IMG/VR virus record: IMGVR_UViG_3300032111_000014
Direction: 5' to 3' (one strand)
DNA from: a virus
DNA: 29,068 nt
Shown here: positions 1,441 through 27,695 of the stretch, piece after piece
Position numbering within the stretch: the stretch's first letter is position 1
Layout of the letters: every line of letters starts with the position of its first letter
The notes under the pieces: generated by a model
Databases searched by the model: none
Told to the model about the DNA's origin: nothing
The model's input: only the letters and a program-made list of their open reading frames with translations
Position numbers and translations under genes: made by a program

Positions 1441-2244
1441 TCATGCCATCGGCATCCTGAAAACCCCTACATTAACACCTCCCAGGCCCACACGATTTAT
1501 GATGCCAATTTTCCCTGATCCTTCAAGTTCAAGGTAGCCTGTTGAATTCCTTATAACCCTGAAACCTGCCGGTTCAAATGCGATGCCACCGTAATCCACT
1601 GAACCTGTGATTCTAAGGATGTTTTCAGGGAAAATGGCCAGTGAAGTCCCCCCCATGGTTACATTGGTGCTCATATTACCGCTGGCCCTCAGATTCTGAT
1701 GCAGGTCTGCTATGTAGAAACCGCCGGTGTTAACATTGAAGGAGGCGTTCCTGAAGGTGGAATTTCCGATTAACACTGTCCCTCCTCCTGCGTACTGTAT
1801 GGTTGAGTTGAGGTTTTCTATCCTTGAATCATTGGCGAGTACAACCCTGAATCCACCTGTCCTTGTTTTAAGGGTGATGTTGTAGATGTACCTGTTTGAT
1901 AGCATTATCCTTGCACTGGCGGTGTCCATTGTAATGTTCAGGTTCAGGTTTTCACCATTCACTGTATGGTTAACCCTGGGGCGCGGAGTGCCGGAGCTCC
2001 TCTCTGTCTCAACGGTGTAAACCCTCCCTGATGTGTTTGTAAATTCAAGGTCCACGCCGCTGGCATTTGATTCCAGGTTCACATTCACATACCTGACACC
2101 GGATACCTCACTTGAGTTAAGTGTGAAGTTCTCAGTCACAGCCTCATCTGACCGCGGCAGGAGCGATGCTGCAGATGCAACGATAAATGCAGCCACCAGT
2201 ATGATGAGGAGTACTGCCCCTGCAATATTCATTCTGTCCATCAT
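1441..2244 (-). CDS. Membrane-anchored hypothetical protein with beta-rich, Asn/Ser/Thr-rich ectodomain (DUF4097-like), host gene
   Basis: 267-aa ORF with an N-terminal hydrophobic helix and many N-x-S/T sequons; its start overlaps the Yip1 stop at 2241-2244, suggesting an operon. Confidence 0.6.
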   Translation of the reverse strand: MMDRMNIAGAVLLIILVAAFIVASAASLLPRSDEAVTENFTLNSSEVSGVRYVNVNLESNASGVDLEFTNTSGRVYTVETERSSGTPRPRVNHTVNGENLNLNITMDTASARIMLSNRYIYNITLKTRTGGFRVVLANDSRIENLNSTIQYAGGGTVLIGNSTFRNASFNVNTGGFYIADLHQNLRASGNMSTNVTMGGTSLAIFPENILRITGSVDYGGIAFEPAGFRVIRNSTGYLELEGSGKIGIINRVGLGGVNVGVFRMPMA

Positions 2245-2578
2245 AACACCCCCAGAATCATCATCAGAACGGTTACCACAACTGCTGGAAGTGCAAATAC
2301 TGATAGAAAGGCCCTTCCATAGCCTATCCCATGCTCAGCATCCACTGCAGCAACAGCAGTGGTAATGGTCCATATGTACATCACCACCATGAGGGCTGTG
2401 GATGTGAAGATTGTTCCCCAGAGTATCAGGGTCATGAAGGCGAATATTCCAACCACGAAGGGGGCCGCTGCAAAGCCCATCATCCTGAAGGTCCCTGAGA
2501 ATGTCCCTCCTCCACTGAAAACCCTGGATGCAACTATATGGGATATCAGTGCCCATAAAATGAGTTTTATGAATGAAA
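2241..2578 (-). pseudogene. 3' part of a Yip1-domain membrane protein gene interrupted by the prophage
   Basis: Reads SFIKLILWALISHIVASRVFSGGGTFSGTFRMMGFAAAP...LGVL* on the minus strand; in frame with the 27332..27564 N-terminal half across the 13-bp att core. Confidence 0.88.
2566..2578 (+). repeat. attL core TTTATGAATGAAA
   Basis: Exact 13-bp copy of 27332..27344; recombination here restores the host frame. Confidence 0.9.
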
Positions 2579-2580
2579 GT

Positions 2581-2608
2581 TTTATAGAAATGTCTACATT
2601 TATAGACA
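2581..2608 (+). promoter_or_regulatory. Putative integrase promoter (TTTATA at 2599-2604) overlapped by inverted repeats
   Basis: TATA-like box about 27 bp upstream of an SD-less ATG at 2630; inverted repeats TGTCTA-N6-TAGACA (2591-2608) and AAATGT-N2-ACATTT (2588-2601). Confidence 0.45.
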
Positions 2609-2629
2609 GTGCTTTTATACAGATAATTC

Positions 2630-3838
2630 ATGCCCACCAAGAAACCATCCCCAGATAAAGTAACACAAGACCCCCTATTCCAGGATTTTATTTTAACAAG
2701 GAACATAAAACAAGGAACGATCAGATCATATATCGCGGCTTTACAATACTATCTCACAGTAACAGGTAAAAATAACCTCACAGAACTCATTGAGGAAGCC
2801 GAGAATGAACAGGACCGTGGTGTTAGAAGAAGAAAAAGGCGCATCAGAACATACTTCATCAAGTACATCAAGGCACTCGAAGAAAATGGAATCAGAGAAT
2901 CAACCATCAACCTCTACCTTTCACGTCTGAAAACGATCTACAATGAATATGAGATAGACACACCACGTATCACCTACAAGACCAACACTAATAACAATGC
3001 ATCACTTGAAGAGCTTCTTAGTATTGAAGAGGTGAAGCATGTTGTTGATAATGTTAAAATCAGAGAAAAGGCCATAATCCTACTGCACCTCACGAGTGGA
3101 ATGGGCGCTGCAGAAGTGCAAAGCCTCACACTTCATGATTATAATAGTGCGATCGGCTTTAATGTCCTGGGCGGGGACTATAATGAGTTGAAAAAAAGAA
3201 TTATGGATGAGGGGATCATTGGTGTGTGGAAGATCAGACGTGTGAAGACAGGGATGCCCTATGTGACATTCAGCACACCTGAGGCTAACCTTAAGATCCT
3301 TGAATATTTGAAACACCGGAAACTTAAGGGTATGCCCGCCACAAGTTCAGATGACCCTTTATTCGTAAGTCGTTCTAATAAGCCCATAATGCGCTCCAAT
3401 TACATGGCCATTTTTGAGAGGATAAACGATTCTTTAGGAATGGGGTTCTGTGAGAATGGATCGCGCAGGTTTACATCACATAAACTTAGAAAATTATTCA
3501 CGAGCATCCTTTATAAGGAGGGAATGGATAAGCTCATGATCGATTGGTGTTTGGGCCATAAAGTTAATCCCGTCACGGAGGCTTATTTTAAGGCTAATAT
3601 TGAGCACCTGAAGCGAGAGTATAGGAAGAGGATGCATGCATTAACCCTGGAGAAGTCACGTGTTAGGAGGGTTATGTCTGATGAGGTCAGAGAGATTGTC
3701 CGTGAGTTGGAGGCTAAGGAGAGGGAGATTAAGGAGTTGCGTGAGTCTCAGGAGAAGTTGAGGGAGTGGGTGAAGAAAACGGAGAAACTCTATAATATTA
3801 TTGTTTCAGATCCTGAGTTTTTGAAGAGAATGAGATAA
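2630..3838 (+). CDS. int: Tyrosine recombinase/integrase with C-terminal coiled coil
   Basis: Motifs RVKT (K206), HKLR (H284/R287), LGH (H310), EAY (Y319); adjacent to attL. The first catalytic Arg position reads Gly (SGMGAAE). Confidence 0.9.
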   Translation: MPTKKPSPDKVTQDPLFQDFILTRNIKQGTIRSYIAALQYYLTVTGKNNLTELIEEAENEQDRGVRRRKRRIRTYFIKYIKALEENGIRESTINLYLSRLKTIYNEYEIDTPRITYKTNTNNNASLEELLSIEEVKHVVDNVKIREKAIILLHLTSGMGAAEVQSLTLHDYNSAIGFNVLGGDYNELKKRIMDEGIIGVWKIRRVKTGMPYVTFSTPEANLKILEYLKHRKLKGMPATSSDDPLFVSRSNKPIMRSNYMAIFERINDSLGMGFCENGSRRFTSHKLRKLFTSILYKEGMDKLMIDWCLGHKVNPVTEAYFKANIEHLKREYRKRMHALTLEKSRVRRVMSDEVREIVRELEAKEREIKELRESQEKLREWVKKTEKLYNIIVSDPEFLKRMR

Positions 3839-3912
3839 TGATTGTGATTAGTTTTCAGGGGCTCTCTAAGGTTAAAGGTATTATTTATTCTTTTCTTATT
3901 AACCTTTCATAG

Positions 3913-4015
3913 GGTGGGGTCCCCAGGGGGTTTTAGAAGGAAGTTCTTTTGGCGCCCACCAAAAAGTGACATCCCCTAATGACCCCCTGGGGGTGCGCAT
4001 CCCTTAGGGGGATGC
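3913..4015. other. GC-rich cluster of inverted repeats (possible structured RNA or DNA element)
   Basis: Stems 3921-3931/3982-3992 (11 bp perfect), 3947-3952/3959-3964, 3997-4003/4009-4015, and a crossing pair 3913-3918/3955-3960. Confidence 0.55.
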
Positions 4016-4040
4016 TATGTGATAGGTATTAATGGTAGTG

Positions 4041-4049
4041 TTATATATA
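4041..4049 (+). promoter_or_regulatory. TATA box TTATATATA, probable rightward early promoter
   Basis: Archaeal TATA consensus about 30 bp upstream of the first GGTGGT-AAG-ATG start signal. Confidence 0.55.
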
Positions 4050-4064
4050 GGTGCCCCCCTTTAG

Positions 4065-4088
4065 TGTGTGGTGGTAAGATGAAAACAC
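4065..4088 (+). repeat. 24-bp direct repeat copy 1 (TGTGTGGTGGTAAGATGAAAACAC)
   Basis: Identical to 4394..4417; contains an SD and ATG; enclosed by the inverted repeat 4052-4060/4091-4099. Confidence 0.95.
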
Positions 4089-4119
4089 TGAGGGGGGCAG
4101 AAGAAAGAGTTTCATTGGT

Positions 4120-4293
4120 TTATTCTTTAATTTCGTCAAGATATTCTTTATTTTTTTCGATAAACAAGTCTATGGCTTCTTCCCATGCTGAAGTAATTGG
4201 TGTTTTCTCGAATTTTAGCATTGCGATGACTTTGAAGAGTTTGAACTTTTTTGCATCGATATTGACGCTTGTGTTGACCTTTTCACTTTTCAT
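4120..4293 (-). CDS. Ribbon-helix-helix DNA-binding protein, candidate lysogeny repressor (57 aa)
   Basis: MKSEKVNTSVNIDAKKFKLFKVIAMLKFEKTPITSAWEEAIDLFIEKN shows the beta-helix-helix pattern; AT-rich promoter-like DNA upstream. The ORF track extends to 4623, but the 4293 start is more plausible. Confidence 0.65.
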   Translation of the reverse strand: MKSEKVNTSVNIDAKKFKLFKVIAMLKFEKTPITSAWEEAIDLFIEKNKEYLDEIKE

Positions 4294-4340
4294 GGTTTCT
4301 ATTTTTTCAGAGCATAGCTTAAAAATCTTTATACTATTTA

Positions 4341-4360
4341 ACCAATATACCAATATACCA
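4341..4360. promoter_or_regulatory. Tandem ACCAATAT repeats in the AT-rich region upstream of the RHH gene (operator candidate)
   Basis: ACCAATAT-ACCAATAT-ACCA next to TATA-like sequences on the minus strand. Confidence 0.4.
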
Positions 4361-4393
4361 AAAAATATAAATACCATGTCATCCATAGGATTA

Positions 4394-4417
4394 TGTGTGG
4401 TGGTAAGATGAAAACAC
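4394..4417 (+). repeat. 24-bp direct repeat copy 2
   Basis: Identical to 4065..4088; supplies the SD and ATG (4408) of the first early gene. Confidence 0.95.
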
Positions 4418-4884
4418 AAGACATTATAATTAGGAAAAGCCTTGAAGCCTGGAGAAAGTACAAGGGGGCCCTTGAAGAAGGCTACCCCGAAGAGATAGAA
4501 GAAACATACCAGAACTACCTGGACTATGAAGGCGTCAGAGTGGAAATACAAACACCTGTAGAAGCCCTTGAAGACCAAGTACATGAAAACTGGATGGGCT
4601 TCAGAAACCCCAACAAGGCCCATTTAACCAGTGAAGCAATCCGTGAATTCAAAAGAATACTTGAATACTTTGCAGGTGATCTTCTACATTCAGCAGGTAG
4701 CCTTGCATGGATCAGAGCACTCAGGAAACACGAAGGGAAAGAAGATGTAATTATTGATGAAGACATTGTTTACCTCGCCTACCTGAACATACTCAGCGGC
4801 CTAATTACTTCAGAAGATGAAGAGACACTCAAACGTCACAATGCACTCTACAGGTCAATAATTTACGGAGTGGAGGTGGAATAA
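4408..4884 (+). CDS. Hypothetical early protein (158 aa)
   Basis: ORF with GGTGGT SD at ATG 4408; helical and acidic; no recognised family. Confidence 0.75.
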   Translation: MKTQDIIIRKSLEAWRKYKGALEEGYPEEIEETYQNYLDYEGVRVEIQTPVEALEDQVHENWMGFRNPNKAHLTSEAIREFKRILEYFAGDLLHSAGSLAWIRALRKHEGKEDVIIDEDIVYLAYLNILSGLITSEDEETLKRHNALYRSIIYGVEVE

Positions 4885-5025
4885 ATGATGCCATTAACCA
4901 AAAAGGAACTCTACAACCGCCTCCTAATAACAAGGGACATCGACGACATTAACCGCTACAGGAAAACCATCGAAGATTTAATCAGATGGATCCAGATTGA
5001 CCTAAAAGATGGGGATGAATGGTGA
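4885..5025 (+). CDS. Small hypothetical protein (46 aa; not in ORF track)
   Basis: MMPLTKKELYNRLLITRDID...DEW*; GGAGGT SD; starts immediately after the previous stop. Confidence 0.6.
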   Translation: MMPLTKKELYNRLLITRDIDDINRYRKTIEDLIRWIQIDLKDGDEW

Positions 5026-5141
5026 TGTCCGATATGAACATGAGGGCTGTGATCCTAATCCTCCTAATCCTCCTCTTTTTCATTTTCATGGGATTTATGA
5101 AGACACTTGAAGTTGCACCATACCACACATTTGGATTGTAG
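5025..5141 (+). CDS. Small single-TM membrane peptide (38 aa; not in ORF track)
   Basis: MSDMNMRAVILILLILLFFIFMGFMKTLEVAPYHTFGL*; TGATG coupling with the previous gene. Confidence 0.55.
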   Translation: MSDMNMRAVILILLILLFFIFMGFMKTLEVAPYHTFGL

Positions 5142-5190
5142 GGGGTTGATGCTATGGGATTAGTGGATGAATATAAAGGGGGTGTGAATA

Positions 5191-5715
5191 TTGAATGACC
5201 TTCTACTGGAATTAGAGAATGATGAAGGATGGGAAGACCTGAACGAATCAGCAATATTCTGGAACCCCGTGGAGGGAGAAAGTATACGTGGCATCTGCAA
5301 AGGCATCAAGGAGATACACACAAAACTCGGCAGCCTAAAAGTCATGACCCTCCAAACAGCAGACGGGGAATACTACGTGAAAGGCCACAAGGCCCTAGAG
5401 AAATACTTTGACAGGATACAAGAAGGATGGGGTGTCTGGATCACATACAATGGAAAGGCAAAGTCACAGAAGGGTGCGGAATACCACAGTTACACAGTGA
5501 AGGTGAAAAGGCTCGAGCAACCTGCACAGTTAGGGGTTCTCCATGAGAATGACTTCCAGGACAAAAGCATCCAGGCGCTTATCATGTTGACCCGCGCCGA
5601 CAAAGGGACGACAACATTAAAGAATGTGCTGGAAAAGCTTGATGAAGTCTATGGTGAGGGTGGTGTCACAGAATCCGAGTACCTCAAAATCAAGGAGGAA
5701 CTGGGGGTGAACTAA
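5191..5715 (+). CDS. Putative OB-fold single-stranded DNA-binding protein with C-terminal helical extension
   Basis: TTG start with GGGGTG SD; beta-rich aromatic/Gly pattern (WNPVEGESIRG...YNGK...YHSYTV) resembling phage SSB-like OB folds. Pattern-level call only. Confidence 0.45.
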   Translation: MNDLLLELENDEGWEDLNESAIFWNPVEGESIRGICKGIKEIHTKLGSLKVMTLQTADGEYYVKGHKALEKYFDRIQEGWGVWITYNGKAKSQKGAEYHSYTVKVKRLEQPAQLGVLHENDFQDKSIQALIMLTRADKGTTTLKNVLEKLDEVYGEGGVTESEYLKIKEELGVN

Positions 5716-5716
5716 C

Positions 5717-5902
5717 ATGGATAGAGTCAGGACCAGCATAATGCTCCCTGAAGGTGTGTACAGTTACCTGAAAGACATTGTGATAACAGCACAAGACGAA
5801 GGAGTGAAACTATCCATGAATGAGATCATCAATGACGCCATCCTCTATTACCTGGACTATGTGAACATCGAGAGAGAATACCTTGATAGGAGGATGCGCT
5901 GA
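5717..5902 (+). CDS. Ribbon-helix-helix protein
   Basis: RTSIMLPEGVYSYLK...SMNEIINDAILYYL fits the CopG/Arc pattern. Confidence 0.7.
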   Translation: MDRVRTSIMLPEGVYSYLKDIVITAQDEGVKLSMNEIINDAILYYLDYVNIEREYLDRRMR

Positions 5903-6369
5903 TGGTGGGGGAACACCTACGGAGGCTGCGGAAGGCGCAGAACATTCAAGTCGAACCTCTACCTGGGGATGATGCATTACTAGCATTCATCACCCGGTCA
6001 GAGAATGGGGAATACCTTGTCACAGTACTGGATAACATGATACGATGCGAATGCCCTGATTACCAGTACCGTCATGGCGATGAGGGTTCATACATCTGCA
6101 AACATTGCTGGGCAGTCCTGCAGCACATACTCAACGAATCATATGAAGAATACGGTGACCATGAATGCATGCGCACATTCAAGGTACCTGCTTGGCTTGC
6201 TGAAGAAAAAGGACTCAGCAGGGAAAGAGTGACAGGAACAATAGAACATGAAACACCCAAGGCCATACTGCTGAGAACACCTAAAGGAGAGTCTTACTGG
6301 CTCCCCAAAAGCCAGATCCGTGAAGAAAGGATCCCCACTGATCAAACCACCCTGGGGGTGAAAGGATGA
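5902..6369 (+). CDS. SWIM zinc-finger protein
   Basis: CECPDYQYRH...CKHCWAV matches CxC-Xn-CxH. Confidence 0.8.
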   Translation: MVGEHLRRLRKAQNIQVEPLPGDDALLAFITRSENGEYLVTVLDNMIRCECPDYQYRHGDEGSYICKHCWAVLQHILNESYEEYGDHECMRTFKVPAWLAEEKGLSRERVTGTIEHETPKAILLRTPKGESYWLPKSQIREERIPTDQTTLGVKG

Positions 6370-6503
6370 GAGGAGATTTTGATGAGGAAGAACTCCAGAG
6401 TGCAATGGAAGCATGGAGTAAACTCATCAGATGGGCCCACAGATGGGAGGAAGAAGGATGCAGAGGAGGATCTGCGGAAGGCGAGATCTCCAGAAGGCCA
6501 TAA
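6366..6503 (+). CDS. Small acidic hypothetical protein (45 aa; not in ORF track)
   Basis: ATGA overlap with the SWIM gene stop; MRGDFDEEELQSAMEAWSKLIRW... Confidence 0.4.
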   Translation: MRGDFDEEELQSAMEAWSKLIRWAHRWEEEGCRGGSAEGEISRRP

Positions 6504-6700
6504 AGGAATTACTCAGAGAATATGGGGAGTTGAGTGTGGAGGAGTTGCACAGGCTACTCCTTCACAACTATGAATTCGGAAGGAATTATGATGTAACCCG
6601 GCAGGCTGTCACAATCTACACGCGTAGGGTGGCGGCGACTACAGGGATAACGATGAATAAGTATGGGAAACCAGTCAGGGTGTACACATTGGAGGCGTAG
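6458..6700 (+). CDS. Winged helix-turn-helix protein
   Basis: LQKAIKELLREYGELSVEELHRLL...TRQAV...GKPVRVY; the track start is 6431, but ATG 6458 has the better SD. Confidence 0.6.
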   Translation: MQRRICGRRDLQKAIKELLREYGELSVEELHRLLLHNYEFGRNYDVTRQAVTIYTRRVAATTGITMNKYGKPVRVYTLEA

Positions 6701-6702
6701 TA

Positions 6703-6936
6703 ATGGATGACAAGTTTATATTGACCGAGGAAGCATTTGAGGAAAGTAAAGAATTAGCGCTTAAGACTGTGAGGTTATTCCGTGATGAGGGGGCGCATCC
6801 ATTAATTGGGTTGGAAGCGCTTCTAATTGCCTTAGAGGCCACAATTAAAGGTACAGGTATGAGGGAATCAGAGGCATTGGTGGCTGTTACAATAATGTCA
6901 CTAAAGAAATTATTAGATGATGATGGGGGTCAATAG
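6703..6936 (+). CDS. Hypothetical protein (77 aa)
   Basis: Tightly packed operon ORF with SD. Confidence 0.65.
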   Translation: MDDKFILTEEAFEESKELALKTVRLFRDEGAHPLIGLEALLIALEATIKGTGMRESEALVAVTIMSLKKLLDDDGGQ

Positions 6937-6938
6937 TC

Positions 6939-7223
6939 TTGGAGGTTAAAGTGACTTTAAGAGTGGACGATGAATTATACAGGTTCTTCATGGAGAATGA
7001 TGTTGACCTGGATAGGGTCATGCAGTTATTCATGAACCAGATGAACTACTACTTCAGGGAGACAATGAGCATCTATTCACTGATGCGACAGGTTCCTGTA
7101 GGGGAAGTCCTCCGAAGGATGGCGTCAGAGTACGATGAGGATGAAAGGAAGAGTAAGGAGAAATTAAGGGAATATCATGAGAAAAATAGGCTAAGAGGGG
7201 CCTTAAACAGTGAAGCACCATGA
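6939..7223 (+). CDS. RHH-like hypothetical protein
   Basis: N-terminus VKVTLRVDDELYRFF fits the RHH strand and helix A; TTG start. Confidence 0.55.
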   Translation: MEVKVTLRVDDELYRFFMENDVDLDRVMQLFMNQMNYYFRETMSIYSLMRQVPVGEVLRRMASEYDEDERKSKEKLREYHEKNRLRGALNSEAP

Positions 7224-7684
7224 AAGAAGACCAGATAAGTGTCAGGGTTTCAAGGGTTGATAAGGAGACTATTAAGAAAAGTAAGTACAGTTATGCTGAT
7301 GCCATAGAATATTTCGCGAGGTTACTCAGGAAAAATAAGGGTATAATCCCAGAGTTATATCTGAAAGCACTCAGGGAAGAGTTAGATGAAATATCTGAGA
7401 GGAAGATTGAATTGGAAAAGGAATTGGAAAGATTGAACATAGAGGAGGATCGATTGAAAAGAGAGTTAGAGAGGTTTTCTGAGCCTGTTGATGAACCCAT
7501 GAGGGAGGTGAGGGAAGCTGCAAGGTTTGTTATGGAGAGACTTGAGGAGAGAGAGGGTATGGTTTCCCCCAGTGAGGTTGTTAATGATCGTGGTGAGAAT
7601 CTGATAGAGGTTGCTAGTAGGATGTATGGGGCCCCTGAAGAGGAGATCTTAAGGTTACTTTCAGATATGGGAGTCTCCTTATAA
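7220..7684 (+). CDS. RHH-like protein with coiled coil
   Basis: QISVRVSRVDKETIKK...YADAIEYF followed by an E/K/R/L heptad region; ATGA coupling. Confidence 0.6.
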   Translation: MKEDQISVRVSRVDKETIKKSKYSYADAIEYFARLLRKNKGIIPELYLKALREELDEISERKIELEKELERLNIEEDRLKRELERFSEPVDEPMREVREAARFVMERLEEREGMVSPSEVVNDRGENLIEVASRMYGAPEEEILRLLSDMGVSL

Positions 7685-7695
7685 AATTATCTATT

Positions 7696-7960
7696 TGTAT
7701 ATACATCTTTTTTTCTTTGTATATACATTGACGAGAGTATCCCCCTCACATCATGTATATACAGATATACAAGGCATGTATATACGTATATACAAGATTC
7801 CCTAGGGATACCTTCGCAGATGTATATACATCTTTTTTTCTTTGTATATACATTGACGAGAGTACCCCCAGCACATCATGTACATACAGCTGTACAGGGC
7901 ATGTACAGTCGACTGTACAAAACTCCCCAAGGATACCTTCGCAGATGTACATACATCTTT
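7696..7960. repeat. 125-bp tandem repeat (2 copies plus a 15-bp partial) rich in TGTATATACA/TGTACA palindromes; candidate replication origin or regulatory array
   Basis: Copies start at 7696, 7821 and 7946; the first 44 and last 15 bp are identical; 17 internal substitutions. Confidence 0.9.
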
Positions 7961-9863: not shown

Positions 9864-10385
9864 ATGAAAGAAACACCAACCCAAAGGAAAGCATTCGAAT
9901 ACTACTACTCCCTTGGCGACAAAAGAAACCTGAAAAAAGTCGCTGAAAAATTCGGATACTCATATGACACAATTAGAGGATGGTCATCCAAACTCAGGTG
10001 GCGGGAGAGGATATACCAGTACGAGAAGAAACAACTCCAGGAGATAAGAAGAGCGCGTGAAGAATTATCAGAGGAGTCAAAGGAATACTATGCTGACCTC
10101 TGGAGCAAATACCTTAAGGCTTGCAGCCTCACACTGGAGGGTTACATTGAATCCATCGAGAATGGAGGGGAAGGCCTCACCTTACAGACATCTAAGGACC
10201 TCCATAACCTTGGATTAGCAATAGCATTGGGCCTGGGGGATCCTACTGAGATACATGAACACCGTGAAAGTGGTGGTGAACTGGAGGATTTGCTGGAGGA
10301 TCTTGTGTCGGCCACGAAGAACCTGAAGGATGAGGGTATGGATGAAGGCCTGGATGATGAAGAGGCTGAAGTTGAAGGTGGCTGA
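9864..10385 (+). CDS. terS: Terminase small subunit
   Basis: N-terminal HTH (NLKKVAEKFGYSYDTIRGWS..W) immediately upstream of terL. Confidence 0.75.
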   Translation: MKETPTQRKAFEYYYSLGDKRNLKKVAEKFGYSYDTIRGWSSKLRWRERIYQYEKKQLQEIRRAREELSEESKEYYADLWSKYLKACSLTLEGYIESIENGGEGLTLQTSKDLHNLGLAIALGLGDPTEIHEHRESGGELEDLLEDLVSATKNLKDEGMDEGLDDEEAEVEGG

Positions 10386-13357: not shown

Positions 13358-13508
13358 GATTTTCCATTGTGTCGGCCAACCAACCCAAATGAGACTTGTT
13401 TTTTCTTCAGCCATGAGATCCCCCTGTCTGCTGCAAAATCTACCTCCTAAAAATATGGTTTTATGGGTGGTTGGCCTGCTCCCTAATAACATTTTGTGGT
13501 GAGATCTG

Positions 13509-14162: not shown

Positions 14163-14179
14163 TGGGAGTGTGATAGGTT

Positions 14180-15385: not shown

Positions 15386-15396
15386 GGTGATGCAAA

Positions 15397-16344: not shown

Positions 16345-16358
16345 GAATGGGGGATCAT

Positions 16359-16649: not shown

Positions 16650-16664
16650 TATGGGGTCTCAGCT

Positions 16665-16988: not shown

Positions 16989-17006
16989 CGATAAGGGGGT
17001 GGATGT

Positions 17007-18153: not shown

Positions 18154-18884
18154 TGGATATGATTGTGGATAAACTAGCAGAAACTATACTGACAGGGGAG
18201 AACGTTGGGTTCTTCCTTGGGATACCTGTGCAGGAGGAAACCCCAATAGGGGATATAGACGGGATGAATAAGGATTTTTATGTGAAGAATCCACCGATAT
18301 TCCCTAGGAGCTGCGATGACCTGACAGTGAAACCAGCAGATGTGACAGTGACAGTGGATGGTTCACCAGCAACAGTATCAAGCATCCTCTTCGACGAGGA
18401 TGAAGGATACGCTAAGGGTTTCAGTCTCGCATCAGCACCAGACACAGGGGATAGTGTGAAAGTATCATATGTGGAGGAGATGGAACCATTCCTTGCCCAG
18501 GATGTCACCCCTGATGTGAAACAGGACACAAAGGAGGTCAGCATATTAAATGAGTCGGCGAAGATAACAAGCTACGCTGGCACCACAATCACACTAAAAT
18601 CTGAGCAGATACTCTCCAAAAATGGTTTGGAGCAGTTCAGAAAACTAATGTACTACAAAGTGGGTGAAACCACAGGGGCCGAGCAATATAAACTCCGTGA
18701 CAAACCCATCAACCTATACGGGTACACCGTGTACCACGTGGATGGGGAAACACTGGGACGGTTCTACTTTGAAAATGTGAAACTGAAACCTGACATACCC
18801 GGAGGTAAAGCAGGGGACAACCTGTCATTCACCCTTGAGATGACCGTCGCAGATACACCAACACTCGTAATACCAAAAACGTAA
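18150..18884 (+). CDS. Major tail (tube) protein with an inserted beta-sandwich-like segment
   Basis: Tube-type C-terminus (GKAGDNLSFTLEM); insert DVTVTVDG...APDTGDSVKVSY. Confidence 0.7.
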   Translation: MMDMIVDKLAETILTGENVGFFLGIPVQEETPIGDIDGMNKDFYVKNPPIFPRSCDDLTVKPADVTVTVDGSPATVSSILFDEDEGYAKGFSLASAPDTGDSVKVSYVEEMEPFLAQDVTPDVKQDTKEVSILNESAKITSYAGTTITLKSEQILSKNGLEQFRKLMYYKVGETTGAEQYKLRDKPINLYGYTVYHVDGETLGRFYFENVKLKPDIPGGKAGDNLSFTLEMTVADTPTLVIPKT

Positions 18885-18906
18885 TACCAAAAATGTGAGG
18901 GAATAT

Positions 18907-19449
18907 ATGACTTCACCTAAACGCTTCTCTTTTTTCAAGAAGAAAAAATTAGATCTTAACGGGACACAAGTGGAAATCGAAGGGTACCGGGTCATTGACA
19001 GTGAATATGTAATCCCCTTGATCGAAAAGAGAAATGAGGCCCTAGAGATCGGGGCGACATACCAACGCTTTATAGAAAAAATCGAGAAAAAGAAGGAAAT
19101 ATCAAAAGAAGACGCGAAAACGATCAAAAAACTCAAAGACAAGATAGATAAACTCACCGTTGAAGTCAGCAAGATAAGCTACCCACTGGCACAGAGGGGA
19201 ATCAAAAGAGCACTATACAAGAACACACAGGAATACAGGGAAGCAGAGTCCCAGGGCAGCCTTACTGAGTACCTTGACAGTTTACCAGATGTGGAATTAG
19301 CGCCGTATATGGTCACAGAAATTGTGAATACTATGCTGGAGTTGGGGAACCCTGACCTTATAGGAATCCCTCCTGAAGAGCCTGAAAAAAAGCAGGGCCG
19401 GAGGAGGAGTGGATCATCCTCAAGAGGCAGATCTACCAGTTCAGTATGA
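18907..19449 (+). CDS. Tail assembly chaperone (G-like)
   Basis: Between tail tube and TMP; contains the slippery heptamer A-AAA-AAG at 19386-19392. Confidence 0.75.
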   Translation: MTSPKRFSFFKKKKLDLNGTQVEIEGYRVIDSEYVIPLIEKRNEALEIGATYQRFIEKIEKKKEISKEDAKTIKKLKDKIDKLTVEVSKISYPLAQRGIKRALYKNTQEYREAESQGSLTEYLDSLPDVELAPYMVTEIVNTMLELGNPDLIGIPPEEPEKKQGRRRSGSSSRGRSTSSV

Positions 19450-19628
19450 GTACAGGGTGGTCATTACGGGAAATACTTGAATTGGAATACAGCGTATTCC
19501 TAGAGTACTACCTGGCTCATCTCGAGGATCCCACGATGAAACCCTCTGAGGATGAGATAGAGACCAGATTAGAGGAACTTAAAAAGATAAATTATGGTCT
19601 AAAAGATGAGGACAAATATGATTCTTAG
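19392..19628 (+). CDS. Tail assembly chaperone T segment, expressed as a GT fusion by -1 frameshift
   Basis: The -1 frame is open from the slip site: [31 protein letters not shown]... Confidence 0.7.
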
Positions 19629-20080
19629 GTGTGACAACTCCTGCGATGTCCTAAAATTGTCTCAAATGCCTCAGAAATAACACCTAAACCTACTATAAGA
19701 AGAATGGCAGAAATGCCATAACTCCATCCTTTAGGAGGCATAATTAGTATTAGAACACCTATCGAGGTGATAAAAGTCCCTTCTATCAGTTCAAGGTGTG
19801 GCAGACCATTCTTCCTGTAAATTATGCTGATGATGAAGAATATGGGGAGAGCTAAGAACAGGATCTCAAACAATAACTTAATAGGTTCAGGATAATCACG
19901 GAACCACATAAGCCCATACAAAACTGAATAGATAAATATTAAGTTTGATTTTACCATTCCAATGATCGGAGCACTCCTTAAATCCCCCCCGCATTCACAT
20001 GTGTAATCCTTGGGGTTTTCATCATCCTTTAGGGTGTACTCCCGGCCACACTCCTTACATTTCACCTTCAAGTGAGACAT
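19625..20080 (-). CDS. Zn-ribbon plus multi-TM membrane protein (moron, opposite strand)
   Basis: CKECG...CECGG followed by about 4 hydrophobic helices; own AT-rich upstream region at 20081-20120. Confidence 0.8.
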
Positions 20081-20141
20081 CCCCTTAGTAGTATTATGTT
20101 AATAAGTAATTAAATTTTTTCCCACATGGAGGGTCATTTCT

Positions 20142-23100
20142 TTGAGTGATCATAGCCTTGCTGTGCAGGTTCAGATGGATGCAGAGGAAGTGTTGAACGG
20201 TTTGAATGAGATTAACAATATGTTATCAAATCTTCCAGGTTCAGTGGAAGTCGATTTCACCAGTGAAGATGCAATTACTCCTATCCTTGAATCTATCCAG
20301 GAGGGTTTGAACAGCTTGCCCTCAGACGTTGAAATCGCTATCTCAGCATTCGATGACTTCGCCACAGAGACCATCACAAATCTTAAAGACCTTGTGGAGG
20401 CATTGCCATCAGAAGTGAATGTGAACCTCACAGCAGAGGATAATGCATCGGATCTGCTTGATTCTTTGAAGGAGAAACTCTCTGAGGAATTCAACATAAC
20501 ATTGAACGTAGAGGATAACGCTACTGACACACTTACAAACCTGAAAAACATCCTTGACGAACTCCCATCCACCGTGGATATCTCCTTGAACGTAGAGGAT
20601 AACGCTACAGAAATTATTGAAAGACTCCATGATCTCCTAGGGGATATCCCTGATGAAATCACAACCACAGTGAACGCTGAAGTTAATGAAGGAGAGGTGG
20701 AAGACCTTAAGACTAAACTTGAGGAGATCGATGGGACCACATATGATACTACGGTTAATGTGGATACGGAATCAATTGAAACAGCTACAGAAACAACAAA
20801 TACTTTCAATGAAGCTATCGACGGTTTAACTTCTAAAGTCGCTGGCTTAACGGCGGGATTCTTATCCTATAATAAAACACTTGAACTCCTAGATTATGAC
20901 AGGATAATTGAGCAGTCAGCAATACTCACAAACGCAACTCAAAGTCAAAGAAAGGCCATGGAGGATCTAATCCGTGAAAACTATGTCTACTCATTGGGGA
21001 TGAAAGGAACGGCTGAGGTGATGTACACACTTGCAGCTTATACCAATGATGTGAACCTGACTATGGGTTACTTTAAAGCAGCCCTTCTTGGGGTTAAAAG
21101 GAGTGGTGAGGATGTCACTGCAGTGACACTGGCACTTGCAAGGGTCTTCAGAGACTTCAATGTCAGCGTCCAGGACTCAATGGATACTGTTAACCTCCTC
21201 CTTGGGCTTTGGAGGATTTCAGGTTATCCATCCTTCACACAGTTCATTGATACTGTTGACAGGCTCGGATACTTCTTCAGACAAGCCGGTTTGAATGCTG
21301 AGGACACCGCCAGGATAATTGCATCGGTAGGTCCTGTTGGCACACGACTTCTGAGACCATTCGCTAAAGAGTTAACTGAAATCTCAAGGGAATGGGAAAG
21401 GGGTGGTGAAGGTGTCAAGGAATACAGTGATAAACTTGAAAAGTTTGGTGTGGCTGTGAAAGACGCTCATGGTAATATCAGACCATTCCGTGATGTGCTT
21501 TTTGATTTTATAGAGGTTCTTTCTCGGATTCCTGATCAGCAGGAACGTGTTAGGGTGGCCACTGAGGTTTTTGGTGAATCGGTGGGGCCAGCGCTGGCAC
21601 AGGTGGCAAGTAACTGGAAAACCACGGGTAAGGTGACTGAAGAGGAATCTGAGAGGATGAACAAAGCACTTGGGAAATCAGCTGAGAAACACAGAGAAAG
21701 TGCAGCAACAATAAGTGGGGAAATTGATAAAATTCTTATGCACTTCTCAGAACTCATAGAAAGATATAAAGGGATATTTGAGGTCATATCACTCCTTCTA
21801 GGTCCAACTGTTGCGGAGCTCATAGTCCATAAGGGTATCCCGGCCATGAAGAACGCGATTAACAAGCTTATTGAGAGTATTAAGAACTTGCTGGGTAAAG
21901 ATTTTGGATTATTAAAGGAAAAATTGCCTGATGAGTTGTCAAATCGCCTCAAAGAAATGTTCAACGAAGGATTTGGTAGGGCCGTAGGTAAACTTAGAGA
22001 TATCGTCAGAGGTTTCATTGATAGAGTTAAAAGAGTACTAAGCGATGAAACAGGCCGTTTAATACCTAAAATTGAGATTCCTGTGGAATTAAAGCTCCCC
22101 AAATTAGATTTCGGCATAGGTAAGAGTCAGGTTGATGACGCTGCAAGGACCCTCCTGGAGAGATTTACAGGGAGTGTTGATGACGCTGCAAGGGTTAGTA
22201 TCCCAGAGTTAGGTTCCCGTATAGGATCCTTGCTTATAAGGGGTATCGGTGAAGGAGTTGGTGTCGCTCTTTTAAGTGTAGATATACTCGCAAACTTTAG
22301 GGAATACCTAAACAGAGCACTCTCTGATCCAACATCCTTATTCGGGCCGACACCTCTTTCATTACTTCCTGATTCCATTAAAAACATGTTTTCCCCTGAA
22401 AAACTTTTTGAGGGGATCTATGGCCCTGAAAAGTGGAGCAAACTAAAGGAAGCGCTGATGCAGAATATCAAGACCTACATTGAGGATCCTATACGTGAGG
22501 AACTTTCAAAATTATTTAGGGACCCCGGAAAGTACATCATCGAAGGCTTTGGGCAAGTATGGAATGACTTCAAAGTGTGGGTCATGACCCGCATACCAAC
22601 ATTTAAATGGCCACAACTACCTAAACTTCCTCTTCCTAATCCTGTAACGGCTCTGCAGGAGATGTGGAACAAATTCACAGGATGGGTTAAGGAACATATT
22701 CCCACTTTCAAATGGCCAAAAGTCCCCAATATTTCCATGCCTAACCTTGTGGCGCTGATTCAACAAGCATGGAATAAGTTTCTTGCGTGGGTTAAGGAAC
22801 ATGTCCCCAAGTTTAAGTGGCCTAAATTACCTAGCCCATCCATGCCTAACCTCGTATCGTTGATCAGCAAGGTCTGGTCCTCCTTCACATCATGGATAAA
22901 ATCAAGATTCAGTGGTTTCAAGTGGCCCAAGTTACCATTACCCGATTTCTCAGGCATCGCGGCCCAATTCAGGATTTGGGGGTCACGTTTCATATCTAAC
23001 CTTGCAGCAGGAATCCGTTCAGCGATTCCTAACCTAAACAGTGTTCTTAGCATCATAAGAAGGTTGTTACCATCATCACCACCAAAAGAGGGTCCTCTAT

Positions 23101-23459
23101 CCTCATTAACATATGATGTGATGAGGGAGTATGGTTATCTTCTTGGGAGACATTTTAATGAGGGCCTGGCAGCGACAATCCCCAATACAATCTCAAGTAT
23201 AGGATCTCCCCAATTTCTGCCTTCTCAGTTAAGTTCAGAAAGTAGGGCGAGAGGAGGTCTTTATTCTCAGGATGTGAATCTCCAGATTCAAACCCATGTA
23301 TACGTGGATAAAGTGGAATCTGATATTGACCTTGAAGAAATGGCAGAGAAAATCTCCACGAGAATTAATAATAAGATATTCCAGGAGATGAGGCGAAACG
23401 GGAAGAATCCTTACCTCATCGCAGAAGGAGTTCAGAGGAGAACAATATTCTCTGATTAG
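20142..23459 (+). CDS. Tail tape measure protein (1105 aa)
   Basis: Longest ORF in the tail module; helical TP901-type core, periodic Trp repeats; TTG start with GGAGGGT SD. Confidence 0.9.
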   Translation: MSDHSLAVQVQMDAEEVLNGLNEINNMLSNLPGSVEVDFTSEDAITPILESIQEGLNSLPSDVEIAISAFDDFATETITNLKDLVEALPSEVNVNLTAEDNASDLLDSLKEKLSEEFNITLNVEDNATDTLTNLKNILDELPSTVDISLNVEDNATEIIERLHDLLGDIPDEITTTVNAEVNEGEVEDLKTKLEEIDGTTYDTTVNVDTESIETATETTNTFNEAIDGLTSKVAGLTAGFLSYNKTLELLDYDRIIEQSAILTNATQSQRKAMEDLIRENYVYSLGMKGTAEVMYTLAAYTNDVNLTMGYFKAALLGVKRSGEDVTAVTLALARVFRDFNVSVQDSMDTVNLLLGLWRISGYPSFTQFIDTVDRLGYFFRQAGLNAEDTARIIASVGPVGTRLLRPFAKELTEISREWERGGEGVKEYSDKLEKFGVAVKDAHGNIRPFRDVLFDFIEVLSRIPDQQERVRVATEVFGESVGPALAQVASNWKTTGKVTEEESERMNKALGKSAEKHRESAATISGEIDKILMHFSELIERYKGIFEVISLLLGPTVAELIVHKGIPAMKNAINKLIESIKNLLGKDFGLLKEKLPDELSNRLKEMFNEGFGRAVGKLRDIVRGFIDRVKRVLSDETGRLIPKIEIPVELKLPKLDFGIGKSQVDDAARTLLERFTGSVDDAARVSIPELGSRIGSLLIRGIGEGVGVALLSVDILANFREYLNRALSDPTSLFGPTPLSLLPDSIKNMFSPEKLFEGIYGPEKWSKLKEALMQNIKTYIEDPIREELSKLFRDPGKYIIEGFGQVWNDFKVWVMTRIPTFKWPQLPKLPLPNPVTALQEMWNKFTGWVKEHIPTFKWPKVPNISMPNLVALIQQAWNKFLAWVKEHVPKFKWPKLPSPSMPNLVSLISKVWSSFTSWIKSRFSGFKWPKLPLPDFSGIAAQFRIWGSRFISNLAAGIRSAIPNLNSVLSIIRRLLPSSPPKEGPLSSLTYDVMREYGYLLGRHFNEGLAATIPNTISSIGSPQFLPSQLSSESRARGGLYSQDVNLQIQTHVYVDKVESDIDLEEMAEKISTRINNKIFQEMRRNGKNPYLIAEGVQRRTIFSD

Positions 23460-23467
23460 GTGATCTA

Positions 23468-23878
23468 ATGATCGATGTGTCCTGGAAAATCAATAATCAG
23501 GAATTACTTGTTTCGCAAGTTACTGAAAACTGGGATAGTCTTGTATTCACACTCGTTGTTCATGCGGAATCTGATGAATATAAAGATCTCCTCATGCAAG
23601 TTAAGGCAATATCCGATATGGCCGTTGCGGATGGTGAGGTTCACAGATTAATTGATGGGAAAACGAAGGTCACATTTACCGGTGGAGAGACTGTGACCAT
23701 CACAGATGGTATAAGAGAATGGACTGGAGTTATTCTTAAGCCACAATACAATTTGGATCATTATCCTGTTATTGTGGTTAGTGTAACCGCCTTAGTGGAG
23801 GCCCCACCATCATTCCTGGAAATAGTGGATGGTATGTACTTCGATTATGATTATTTTGATGGGGAATATTTTGAGTGA
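23468..23878 (+). CDS. Putative distal tail protein
   Basis: Directly follows the TMP; size. Confidence 0.5.
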   Translation: MIDVSWKINNQELLVSQVTENWDSLVFTLVVHAESDEYKDLLMQVKAISDMAVADGEVHRLIDGKTKVTFTGGETVTITDGIREWTGVILKPQYNLDHYPVIVVSVTALVEAPPSFLEIVDGMYFDYDYFDGEYFE

Positions 23879-25755
23879 TGAGGATGGCGTATAATTATAA
23901 ATTCTTAAATGCCTGTAATCAGAGCACTGGATTCTGCATTATATATAACAATCCATGGTATAATGGAGTTAGCTTTGAGAGCAAGGTGTCATTTAAGAAC
24001 TATGGGGAGCCTCACCCGTCAAACCCAGAGGAGGATATTCTGATCATATTCAGCGAACCCTTTAGACCCCCAAATATGTATATAAGTCATGATAATGCGC
24101 TTAATTGCTTTGATAGCCTATATGGATATCCCGAGACAAATCCGGGGACATCACTGAATATTTCACCATCAGGTTTCATTCCTTTACAAACAAATGAATG
24201 TAGGGATGTTCCGTTTAAGTTTACCCCAAGGAATCTGCCCCCAGGACCAATCTATGTGGGAATACGGGCGTATCTTAGACATGATGGACCTGAGAGAACA
24301 CCTATTGCTTCAGAGGATTGGACTTATCGTGCTGTGTCTGAATATGAATCAGGTGCGGATGATGAGGGTGTTGTTTTAGAGGTTACACTCCCCATTCTCA
24401 CAGACAGTTTTCGTGTGGACTATCGTGATTTTGAATTTTATGTGAATGGGAATATCGCTGAAGACAGGTCACTTGAAGGCGTTGAGGGGGATATAGTCAC
24501 ATTTAAAGTACTCACTGACATTGCTGAGGGCACGAATACTATAGAATGCGTGGCGGGGTATAAATTATGGGATAGACCCTTTAGCACAATATCCCCAGAA
24601 ACAGAGATCTCTATTGAAATGGGGGATTGGGAGTGGAATGGATCATATTACACGGATCACATCCTTCTGAGGGGCTTCGTGAATTCCCTAAAACCGGAAA
24701 CAACTAATATTTCGAATTTAAGCGTGTACATTGATAATCAAAAGATCCCCGTCAAAAGATTGAAGATTAATAAGACAATCAATAATATTTCCGTGGAAGC
24801 GACGAGCTTAAATATTAAAGCTTACACTGGGCAAACATTGCGGGTCGAAACAGAAGCAGGTATGATCTATGAGGATAAAATCACCTATGTTTCAAGGAAC
24901 TATACGAGCAAAGGGTGTACTGTGGTGCTCCGTTCAGAACCACCCTCATTAGAGGAAATCCTCAACCGGTCTGTTGGCTTGAACTACAGGGAATGGGATG
25001 GTATAGGAGTCTACAGTGGCCTTGAGAACTACAACAACCTGAGAGCCATCCTTGCCAGATGTGGCCTTGAAGTTCACCCCTCATCAATACAAATCCCAGG
25101 ATGGCCCTACAGGGAGTATGTGAATGGGAATGCAAAGGAACAATTTGACTCTATTCTATCTTTAGGGGGGTGGGTTGCAACAATGTATGAGGGAAAAGTG
25201 CTTATCAGGAATACTAATGGACATGACACTGTTGACATTAATGGATTCCCCACGATTTCATTAGAATATGAAGAGGACTCTGCGGGCGTTATCAACCATT
25301 TGAAGTATTATCGTCAGTGGGATGCTGGAGGAACATACCTTGAAAGAGAATATGAAGATTTGGAGAGCATTAACGGATGGGAATTAGGTAATGGGGATAT
25401 GCATCCAGGTCTGGGGAGAATTGTTATGGAGATCCCCGCAGGAGGAGATGTTGACACGGACACACTTATGGAGTCACATAAAAAAGTAACAAAACCCGTC
25501 ATGAGCATGAATGCCGAGTTTAGTGGGTGGATTGGCTTAGAGCCAGGGTGTGCCTTTACCGATGCGATTTATGGTGAGGATTTCCTAATCACAGCAGTCA
25601 GGATCTCATTCGATAGTCAGGGGGCCATAACTCAGATAACAGCAAGCAATACAGATTCAGGTCATCTTGTTGAAGTTCGCGGGTTTGGTGTATTATATGG
25701 TAAGGGCGGAAATCTCCAGCCGAAGGAAGGTTGGATATATGGTAGAAAGGAGTGA
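23875..25755 (+). CDS. Putative baseplate hub/tail-tip protein
   Basis: Synteny; the C-terminal half has hub-like features (LEPG...FLITAVRISF). Confidence 0.55.
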   Translation: MMRMAYNYKFLNACNQSTGFCIIYNNPWYNGVSFESKVSFKNYGEPHPSNPEEDILIIFSEPFRPPNMYISHDNALNCFDSLYGYPETNPGTSLNISPSGFIPLQTNECRDVPFKFTPRNLPPGPIYVGIRAYLRHDGPERTPIASEDWTYRAVSEYESGADDEGVVLEVTLPILTDSFRVDYRDFEFYVNGNIAEDRSLEGVEGDIVTFKVLTDIAEGTNTIECVAGYKLWDRPFSTISPETEISIEMGDWEWNGSYYTDHILLRGFVNSLKPETTNISNLSVYIDNQKIPVKRLKINKTINNISVEATSLNIKAYTGQTLRVETEAGMIYEDKITYVSRNYTSKGCTVVLRSEPPSLEEILNRSVGLNYREWDGIGVYSGLENYNNLRAILARCGLEVHPSSIQIPGWPYREYVNGNAKEQFDSILSLGGWVATMYEGKVLIRNTNGHDTVDINGFPTISLEYEEDSAGVINHLKYYRQWDAGGTYLEREYEDLESINGWELGNGDMHPGLGRIVMEIPAGGDVDTDTLMESHKKVTKPVMSMNAEFSGWIGLEPGCAFTDAIYGEDFLITAVRISFDSQGAITQITASNTDSGHLVEVRGFGVLYGKGGNLQPKEGWIYGRKE

Positions 25756-25760
25756 TCTTA

Positions 25761-26510
25761 ATGAATATAAGGCATAGTAAAATAGCTTCCAAAACAAATA
25801 AGGTTACAGGGACCGATTGGAATGATGTCCATGTCGTTGAGGGGTTCGATGAGGATGTTGAATCTGCGGTTTCAACAATACTCAGCAACTATCAATTTCT
25901 AAACGAAACAGATGTGAATAATATCCTCACTCAAAGGTTGAATGAGGAGATGAGTGGGGAATCCACGAACCTCGGGCAATATGTCCTTGATATTCTTCAG
26001 AGCCATCAGGATAGTGGAGGGGGTGAATATGAAATCCATGAGGAAGCAACAATTAATGGTGTCAGTGATGGGGATCTACTCTGTAGTTACACTGATAAGA
26101 AAGACATAATTCTTAAATACACATACAAGACCCCCACAACCACTGATACCAGTAATGATTATATTGGCTTGCGACTGGACACAGAGGCATACCTTGACGA
26201 TTATGTCATCAGGGAAACAATACATGGCTCTAATGTGTCTATAGGTTCTGGCCCCTTGAACAGGATTAATCTCGCAACAGGGTTATCAACCACAGGTTAT
26301 CTTGAAGTGATGGGGGAAGTGAAGATTAACTGGTTAAATGATAATAATATTCTTATAGGTGGGGAGTGGATTCGATCAGCCCCTGGCACACCATATAAAG
26401 TTGAGTCATATGGGAGGATCCCAGCATGGGATATCGCACCACTCAGGTTGAAATTAACACTATCATCCAATTTTGGTGGGGTGTTGAAATATAGAGTGCT
26501 CACACGTTAA
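25761..26510 (+). CDS. Putative tail fibre/receptor-binding protein
   Basis: Last structural ORF; N-terminal HSK...DWNDVH motif seen in fibre anchors; beta-rich C-terminus. Confidence 0.45.
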   Translation: MNIRHSKIASKTNKVTGTDWNDVHVVEGFDEDVESAVSTILSNYQFLNETDVNNILTQRLNEEMSGESTNLGQYVLDILQSHQDSGGGEYEIHEEATINGVSDGDLLCSYTDKKDIILKYTYKTPTTTDTSNDYIGLRLDTEAYLDDYVIRETIHGSNVSIGSGPLNRINLATGLSTTGYLEVMGEVKINWLNDNNILIGGEWIRSAPGTPYKVESYGRIPAWDIAPLRLKLTLSSNFGGVLKYRVLTR

Positions 26511-26524
26511 TCTGAGATGGTACT

Positions 26525-27181
26525 ATGCCTCTTAAAAATGGTAAGATTGAGATAAAGAAGTTTAGGAATATGCTAAGGCGCTACGAGGATTTTGTGAAAA
26601 AGGAAGGTCATGAACCCAATATAATATACCTTGAACAAGGTAAAAGTGACCATGTTTCTTTAGGAACATTCAAGGATATGTTAAGGCGCTACAAGGATTT
26701 TGTGAGGAGTAATGGCCGTGACCCTAATTATATCAGCATTCAACCTCAGTCATCTTTAAAAGGGCCTTGGACAACTAAAGTCATCGAAAAGATAGGTACT
26801 TTTCATGATGCAACGAGCCTCTATGAACAGGTGAAAAAGACCTGCAAGTATAAATATTACTATAATGATCAGGTCCCTAATCATGTTGCAGTCATGAGAA
26901 TGACAACAAGCGGGATAAACTGTACTGACGCCTGTCAGTTGTTTCAGCGTGTCATGGAAGAAATGGGGTACATGGTGAAAATAGAACATGTCCAGGTCAA
27001 GTGCAGTGACGGGGGGTGGTACGGCCATTACCTTCTGAATGTCAAAGGTTTTGAATTCAAAGACTGGGTCATATGGGATTACGTATCTGCAACAAAGACG
27101 GGAAGACCATTAGGGGAACCTTGTTGCTTAAATGGACTTAAACATCTGGGATGGGGCATAGTCTCCCCCAAACATGACTAA
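26525..27181 (+). CDS. pei: Pseudomurein endoisopeptidase (PeiW/PeiP-like) with two pseudomurein-binding repeats
   Basis: Repeats FRNMLRRYEDFVKKEGHEPN and FKDMLRRYKDFVRSNGRDPN; triad C133 (INCTD), H168 (GHY), D185 (WDY). Confidence 0.9.
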   Translation: MPLKNGKIEIKKFRNMLRRYEDFVKKEGHEPNIIYLEQGKSDHVSLGTFKDMLRRYKDFVRSNGRDPNYISIQPQSSLKGPWTTKVIEKIGTFHDATSLYEQVKKTCKYKYYYNDQVPNHVAVMRMTTSGINCTDACQLFQRVMEEMGYMVKIEHVQVKCSDGGWYGHYLLNVKGFEFKDWVIWDYVSATKTGRPLGEPCCLNGLKHLGWGIVSPKHD

Positions 27182-27309
27182 AAAAAGAAAAAAGAAGGTA
27201 GGGCATTAATTATATGGCAGAAACACGTGTCCATATGTTTATTTCTTGGCATTGACCATAAAGGTTAATGTATTATCATTACATGAAATGGTATGTCAAA
27301 ATAGGATTA

Positions 27310-27327
27310 AAAGTAAACAAAAAAACC
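27310..27327 (-). terminator. Oligo-T tract likely ending host read-through into the prophage
   Basis: GGTTTTTTTGTTTACTTT on the minus strand just inside attR; a second T-tract at 27181-27196. Confidence 0.4.
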
Positions 27328-27331
27328 AACA

Positions 27332-27344
27332 TTTATGAATGAAA
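27332..27344 (+). repeat. attR core TTTATGAATGAAA
   Basis: Exact copy of 2566..2578. Confidence 0.9.
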
Positions 27345-27695
27345 CAATCAGCACAGCAACTGCAAAGAACACAGGCACCAGGATGCCTGCCCCTGTTACA
27401 GCTGAGACCACACCTCCAAGCATGTACCCTAGAAAGGCTGCGAGGAAAACGTACAGGTAGAGACCCTGCCCTTCAAGTCCCCTCTCCCGGACCCTCCTGA
27501 AGGCCTCCTCGGGTGATACAAGGACAAGTATCATGTCCCTTGAAAAGTTCATTATTCTGTTCAAGACTTAACCTCCTACCATAATCTCAAATTTCTGGTT
27601 ATATCCACTAAAGCATCTCAAAAATAATTCTGTTTATACGCTTCACAATTCTGATCTGCTATCACCCCCATTTTCAGGAAGAAATAATGAAATGA

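Follow-up and report, generated by a model that had tools for sequence, protein, structure and literature searches.

The window analysed here, by which we mean the whole 29,068-nt stretch of the metagenome-derived assembly IMGVR_UViG_3300032111_000014, carries an apparently complete psiM2-like (Psimunavirus) prophage that splits a Yip1-family membrane-protein gene of its Methanothermobacter host into two parts. The prophage occupies 24,753 bp (2579-27331, plus strand). We consider it likely that this is ordinary integration at the sole attB-like sequence left in the host lineage, by a virus that was probably retargeted, and that a null Yip1 allele results. A psiM2-type virus is found here as a prophage in nature, with exact attachment (att) sites, whereas its only cultured relative, psiM2, has never been seen integrated. 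The prophage also appears to be a natural case in which the switching of attachment sites by an archaeal virus can be traced.

The Attachment Sites and the Reconstructed Gene

The 13-mer TTTATGAATGAAA is present in exactly two copies in the window, both on the plus strand. The copy at 2566-2578 forms the core of attL, with host DNA on its left side and the P' arm of the phage on its right, and the copy at 27332-27344 forms the core of attR, with the P arm on its left (colinear with psiM2 23480-23636) and host DNA on its right. Since 98 13-mers are repeated in the window, as opposed to 4-18 in shuffled copies, a 13-bp repeat is not significant by itself, and its weight comes from the sequences that it joins. 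On the host side, the segments 2241-2578 and 27345-27564, joined on the minus strand, give 558 nt with an open 185-aa frame that reads VSFI-KLILW across the junction (marked by the hyphen). Translation could start at a TTG (185 aa; 6 nt past GGAGGT) or at an ATG four codons further on (181 aa), and the rebuilt protein aligns to intact orthologues without a gap. On the phage side, joining 27182-27344 to 2579-2640 rebuilds an attP that follows the psiM2 peiP-int spacer colinearly, with 216 of 225 nt identical. Three of the nine differences make up the central triplet of the core, which is ATG here and TAT in the psiM2 attP core TTTATGATATAAA (L014 23630-23645). The element has, in short, the features of an integrated prophage: direct repeats at both ends, flanks that yield an attB and ends that yield an attP.

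An earlier prediction made from this DNA (the original prediction) had placed the 13-bp repeats inside a protein-coding gene and had joined the flanks into 558 nt with an uninterrupted 185-aa frame. The exact copies, the rebuilt frame and the gapless alignment to orthologues bear out the first of these claims, and the second was reproduced by joining and translation. A tRNA gene was also considered as the integration target and was excluded, as no tRNA gene is found anywhere in the window.

The interrupted gene is recognisable as a member of the Yip1 family (PF04893) from both of its parts. The 3' part (2241-2578, minus strand; 112 codons) matches positions 73-172 of the Pfam profile with 33.8 bits, and the 5' part (27307-27564, minus strand) matches positions 2-66 with 21 bits. 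An intact orthologue (L001:1498-2043) scores 52 bits, with a cut-off of 28.6, and covers positions 2-172 of 173. The translation contains hydrophobic stretches. The 5' part consists of 77 host codons followed by eight phage-encoded codons, which specify the tail NVGFFVYF, and a stop at 27307. The frame of the 3' part is closed by a TGA at 2628-2630, and its first in-frame ATG, GTG or TTG is the ATG at 2483, in agreement with the original prediction that the phage brings no replacement start for this half. There is no intact Yip1 copy in the window, and we infer that the split leaves a null allele and with it a loss of Yip1 function.

Empty Sites in Related Genomes

All nine of the Methanothermobacter species genomes carry one intact Yip1 copy, with open frames of 186-200 aa that contain no stop, and an intact Yip1-type gene is likewise found in five of five genomes from the neighbouring genus. 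The original prediction had called for the locus to be compared in prophage-free Methanothermobacter genomes, and in this comparison each of the nine has the intact gene, with an alignment that crosses the junction without a gap. Of the genomes compared, G008 is the closest, with 97% identity to the joined flanks across 3 kb; its empty site is identical at 93 of 95 nt across the junction and contains the same 13-mer. Empty sites are also seen in metagenomes. In two independent runs (X3 and X7), Logan contigs pass from the left flank through 2578 into CAATCAGCACAGC, the sequence to the right of attR in the window, and these contigs are unoccupied Yip1 sites in near-identical hosts. Taken together, these comparisons support the conclusion that lysogeny has interrupted a conserved, single-copy Yip1-family membrane gene.

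Choice of the Integration Site

A sister prophage in genome G001, with an integrase 98% identical to that of the window, is integrated at a different place. It is flanked by copies of TTTATGATATAAA that lie 26.4 kb apart and is positioned between divergent genes for a CBS-domain protein and a GTPase, and the G001 Yip1 gene is intact. The core of this intergenic attB differs from the window core by 3 nt. The canonical intergenic site (ATGAATYTTATGATATAAA), which is AT-rich, is occupied by the sister prophage in G001 and is empty with an exact match in G003 and G006. G007 and G010 have a one-base variant of the site (CTTATGATATAAA), and a GG insertion disrupts it in G004, G008 and G009. An IMG/VR provirus end (L035) is integrated at this one-base variant. 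The two attB sites share an extended motif, ATGANTYTTATGANNNAAA (ATGA-N-TYTTATGA-NNN-AAA), with one match per genome in the five genomes searched and no match to a reversed control pattern. In G001, G003, G007 and G010 this match is the intergenic site, and in G008 it is only the Yip1 site.

These observations can be accommodated by a simple mechanism. A temperate psiM2-type virus would integrate by means of its tyrosine integrase, through conservative recombination of attP with a 13-bp identical core, which in this host lies in Yip1 coding sequence, where it covers codons for V-S-F-I-K in a membrane helix. Probably the site was picked for its DNA sequence, as a mimic of the usual intergenic attB, and not for the function of the gene. 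Normally, the virus family would use the CBS/GTPase intergenic attB ATGAATYTTATGATATAAA, a site that is destroyed in G008. The integrase would read the flanking motif, strand exchange would require identity of the central bases, and a cycle of integration and excision at a site that is not identical could leave host bases in their place in attP (core exchange). With ATG in both attL and attR, the virus must have entered the host with the ATG core already in place, and core exchange may be the origin of this variant. Here, the proposal leans on phage lambda, in which integration at secondary sites and site-affinity (saf) mutants are known, with changed core-overlap bases and a changed chromosomal target. 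The saf mutants and the present case are alike in that near-identical integrases and attP arms, with few changes in the core overlap, go with a new target. They differ in that the saf mutants come from bacterial genetics, whereas the present case is deduced from natural variants of archaeal viruses.

Relatives with integrases 97% identical to that of the window have other attP cores (TTTATGATTTAAA and TTTAAGATGAAAA). In L034:1-80, L036:2930-3000 and L040:2930-3000, the attP arms are near-identical and the cores differ (TTTATGATTTAAA, TTTAAGATGAAAA and TTTAAGATGAGAA). As far as comparison of sequences can tell, variable cores within near-identical arms suggest that the attachment site has been switched repeatedly.

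The arrangement of the window prophage can be compared with that of psiM100 from Methanothermobacter wolfeii (AF301375), which is of the same virus genus. Both have the order attL, integrase first and pei last before attR, both have an AT-rich att core, and their integrases are 64% identical. The 17-bp core of psiM100, TTTATTATTAAAAATTT, is intergenic (MTW1216/MTW1215) and is reported to leave the neighbouring genes unaffected (Luo et al., 2001, as summarised in PMC8371274), whereas the core in the window is 13 bp long and lies inside a coding gene. The prophage is closer to psiM2/psiM1 of M. marburgensis (AF065411), with which it is colinear by megablast at 91.4% nucleotide identity over 65% of its length; the match to psiM100 is weaker. 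It differs from psiM2 in that it has the core TTTATGAATGAAA and not TTTATGATATAAA, is integrated, and has other distal tail genes and a shorter pseudomurein endoisopeptidase (Pei). Proviruses in archaeal coding genes have been described previously, including BJ1 (HMG-CoA reductase), Msmi-Pro1 (heavy-metal efflux) and NitGar-E6 (AsnC regulator) (PMC8371274). These are likewise tyrosine-integrase proviruses with an attB in archaeal coding sequence, although the viruses and targets differ. A provirus inside an archaeal coding gene is therefore already known, and what the present case adds is a target change between near-identical integrases that can be traced with the help of the empty site, the attP known from a cultured relative and the location of a sister provirus elsewhere.

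The Integrase and the Question of psiM2 Non-integration

The integrase gene (2630-3838, plus strand; psiM2 ORF29 type, 402 aa) is the first gene of the prophage and starts 51 nt from the core. Its product matches the Pfam Phage_integrase profile (PF00589) over residues 137-324 with 60.6 bits (cut-off 27.1) and is 97% identical to the integrase of psiM2. In box II, residues H284, R287, H310 and Y319 align to the HxxR...LGH...Y of P. abyssi XerA (4a8e) and are invariant in four Psimunavirus integrases (window, psiM2, psiM100 and G001). In box I, the GLRVSEL of XerA aligns to GMGAAEV, which places Gly159 at the position of the Arg, and a Gly at this position is common to the same four integrases. 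Another Arg may substitute for it, or the active site of the family may be non-canonical.

This feature bears on the behaviour of psiM2, whose absence from host chromosomes has been attributed to a dead integrase (preprint 10.64898/2026.10.07.757236). If the "inactivating mutation" cited from older literature is the box I Gly, then it would be shared by the whole family and would not stand in the way of integration. An integrase that is 97% identical to that of psiM2 and has the same box I Gly is found here in a clean provirus, and a 98% identical one is found in G001. The possibility that psiM2 stays extrachromosomal through a missing attB in M. marburgensis was also considered and rejected. 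Genome G007 is M. marburgensis Marburg, as its second contig matches plasmid pMTBMA4 at 100% identity. The canonical CBS/GTPase intergenic site of this genome (G007:C1:206262-206280) reads ATGAATCTTATGATATAAA, with a 12/13 match to the psiM2 core within the full motif. A suitable attB seems, then, to be present in the very laboratory host where psiM2 has been reported as non-integrating. The motif ATGANTYTTATGANNNAAA should be useful for integrase-based genetic tools in Methanothermobacter, as well as for asking why psiM2 stays episomal.

Several points weigh against ordinary integration at a retargeted site as set out above. In the absence of the canonical box I Arg, activity of the integrase is deduced from three clean proviruses. 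The motif was built from the two sites that are counted, and the informative part of that count is the single match per genome together with the absence of matches elsewhere. Core exchange is argued from the lambda analogy, and no intermediate was seen. The loss of the intergenic site in the window host is judged from a proxy, G008, which is 97% identical at the locus. Finally, the metagenome comparisons used Logan contigs; such contigs are blind to rare excised forms, and a minority of excised genomes is possible.

Alternative Explanations for the Interruption

One alternative is that Yip1, or the envelope gene coupled to it, is needed for infection as a receptor or entry factor, and that its loss was selected as a form of superinfection resistance. 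Judging from its translation, the target is a multi-pass membrane protein, and it is clustered with genes for SPFH and membrane-anchored proteins; in addition, the distal tail genes of the prophage are unrelated to those of psiM2, consistent with the use of another receptor. However, we found no literature that ties Yip1 proteins to phage entry, and close viral relatives integrate elsewhere, with the sister virus at an intergenic site. The choice of site is accounted for by DNA sequence. The ratio of non-synonymous to synonymous substitution (dN/dS) is 0.46 for the split gene and 0.15-0.18 for its neighbours, a contrast that is based on seven substitutions, too few to be informative. We therefore regard a selected receptor knockout as very unlikely. 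The original prediction had held that lysogeny knocks out a cell-envelope gene, possibly a receptor or phage-sensitivity factor, which excision would restore; the split itself stands, as does its reversibility in principle, and the receptor or sensitivity role is not upheld.

A second alternative is active lysogeny, in which the prophage would be kept in Yip1 as a reversible interrupter and would excise on cue without killing the cell. Phage regulatory switches described in bacteria include those at Bacillus sigK and spsM. Active lysogeny has likewise been described for Listeria phi10403S in comK (PMC7397523) and for the Sa3int phages of S. aureus in hlb (PMC6597384). As in comK and hlb, the prophage interrupts a functional chromosomal gene that precise excision would restore. 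The gene is conserved, neither half is replaced and the integrase is intact. The split gene is also nearly undecayed, with seven nucleotide differences from the G008 copy and no stops; this low decay fits a recent insertion, which explains it equally well. Occupation of comK and hlb is recurrent across strains, and excision without virions has been shown experimentally in those systems. In contrast, the Yip1 insertion was found in one genome only: none of the nine species genomes has it, the sites in X3 and X7 are empty, and short Yip1 fragments, looked for among 5.8 billion proteins, came down to the window's own piece and one unrelated 57-aa fragment at a contig end. In the source runs (X1 and X2), contigs of host and prophage are equally deep (about 125-145 versus 138-142 in one run and 420-448 versus 433-442 in the other), and among the contigs listed there is no empty-site (attB) contig and no loose end at 2578. 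The sister virus, with its 98% identical integrase, is intergenic, which indicates that gene interruption is not a family trait, and the window prophage retains a full virion and lysis module and is not domesticated.

Any conservative site-specific excision restores its target gene, and the in-frame junction is for this reason no evidence for a switch. Gene disruption is here an ordinary consequence of integration. Its reversibility is trivial and goes no further than the restoration of attB that accompanies the excision of every such prophage. We accordingly give little credence to a kept, regulated interrupter, and the excision-controlled host switch of the original prediction is not sustained by an insertion that is not recurrent and is integrated at equal depth. 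Among integrases that are 97-98% identical, attP cores do occur in four or more variants, and two or more distinct attB sites are used. Even so, we hold it very improbable that Psimunavirus integrases retarget by central-core swaps and that, at the same time, interruption of the Yip1 operon is excision-reversible and exploited by host or virus. If this combination were true, it would be the first active lysogeny in archaea. A literature search for archaeal cases, at the level of titles and abstracts, gave bacterial examples only, and a large provirus survey preprint holds no information on integration sites.

Integrity of the Assembly

The window was also compared with an independent Logan assembly of its source runs. 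One contig of 5,271 nt (2455-7725) spans attL with zero differences from the window. Another, of 20.6 kb, runs from 7835 to about 8.4 kb past base 20000, long enough to span attR, and again shows zero differences. From the contig that spans attL and the one that reaches past attR, it follows that the window is not an assembly chimera. The notion that a free virus genome was joined to a host contig via a chance 13-mer is scarcely credible: the window is indeed a metagenome-derived assembly and free psiM2-like genomes occur in other runs, but the independent contigs span attL and reach past attR at host-level depth and without differences, a 13-bp repeat is too short to confuse a 31-mer assembly, and the two junctions are exactly reciprocal.

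Two further observations were made in these metagenomes. In X1 and X2, a second and commoner Methanothermobacter strain is represented at window positions 1444-1704 by contigs with 25 differences and about 1.4-1.6 times the depth. In X7, a sludge metagenome, a psiM2-like contig of 26,317 nt has the length of a virus genome and about five times the depth of the host contigs. It contains a joint from 16819 back to 2581 and is thus probably circularly permuted. With the host Yip1 site empty in X7, related viruses would be free, or integrated elsewhere, in that sample.

The Yip1 Neighbourhood

The split gene lies between two other genes on the minus strand. Upstream of Yip1 is an SPFH/Band 7 (stomatin/HflK-like) gene (27696-28466), with a match of 145 bits to Pfam Band_7; in NCBIfam, its matches to HflK/HflC are weak and below cut-off. 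Downstream is a gene from the open reading frame (ORF) list that encodes a 267-aa protein with an N-terminal membrane anchor (1441-2244), the ATG of which overlaps the Yip1 stop (ATGA). This protein has no match in Pfam or NCBIfam, and a protein-atlas search points to DUF4097-like proteins as a lead only. The Band_7 match and the ATGA overlap confirm the placement in the original prediction of the disrupted gene between an SPFH gene and a coupled membrane-anchored gene.

Because the start of 1441-2244 overlaps the Yip1 stop, the insertion is probably polar on this gene, with translational coupling lost and the promoter probably lost as well. The P' arm (2579-2629) has three TATAAA-type boxes on the minus strand, all in the same orientation (GTATAAAAG, CTATAAATG and CTATAAAAC). 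Outward transcription from the P' arm into the 3' Yip1 fragment and 1441-2244 is conceivable.

Gene Content of the Prophage

The prophage belongs with Psimunavirus (Leisingerviridae) by its proteins as well, since 24 of the 31 psiM2 proteins have homologues in it by tblastn and their order is kept. Packaging, head and tail genes, from TerS to the tape measure, occupy 9864-23459 (plus strand), and all of them, including the head-tail genes, are full length. Identity to the psiM2 proteins is high for TerS (99%), TerL (98.5%), portal (97.8%) and major capsid protein (97%), and falls to 63% for the tape measure. In the same tblastn comparison, psiM2 distal tail ORF22-25 and ORF27 have no counterpart in the prophage, and ORF26 has a weak partial match. 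These distal tail genes are replaced at 23468-26510 by three ORFs of 136, 626 and 252 aa, none of which has a Pfam match, and this region probably serves host recognition of a different kind. Pei, encoded by the final prophage gene next to attR (26525-27181, plus strand), has a Peptidase_C71 match of 266 bits and two PMBR repeats. At 218 aa, it is 50% identical to PeiP of psiM2, which has 305 aa.

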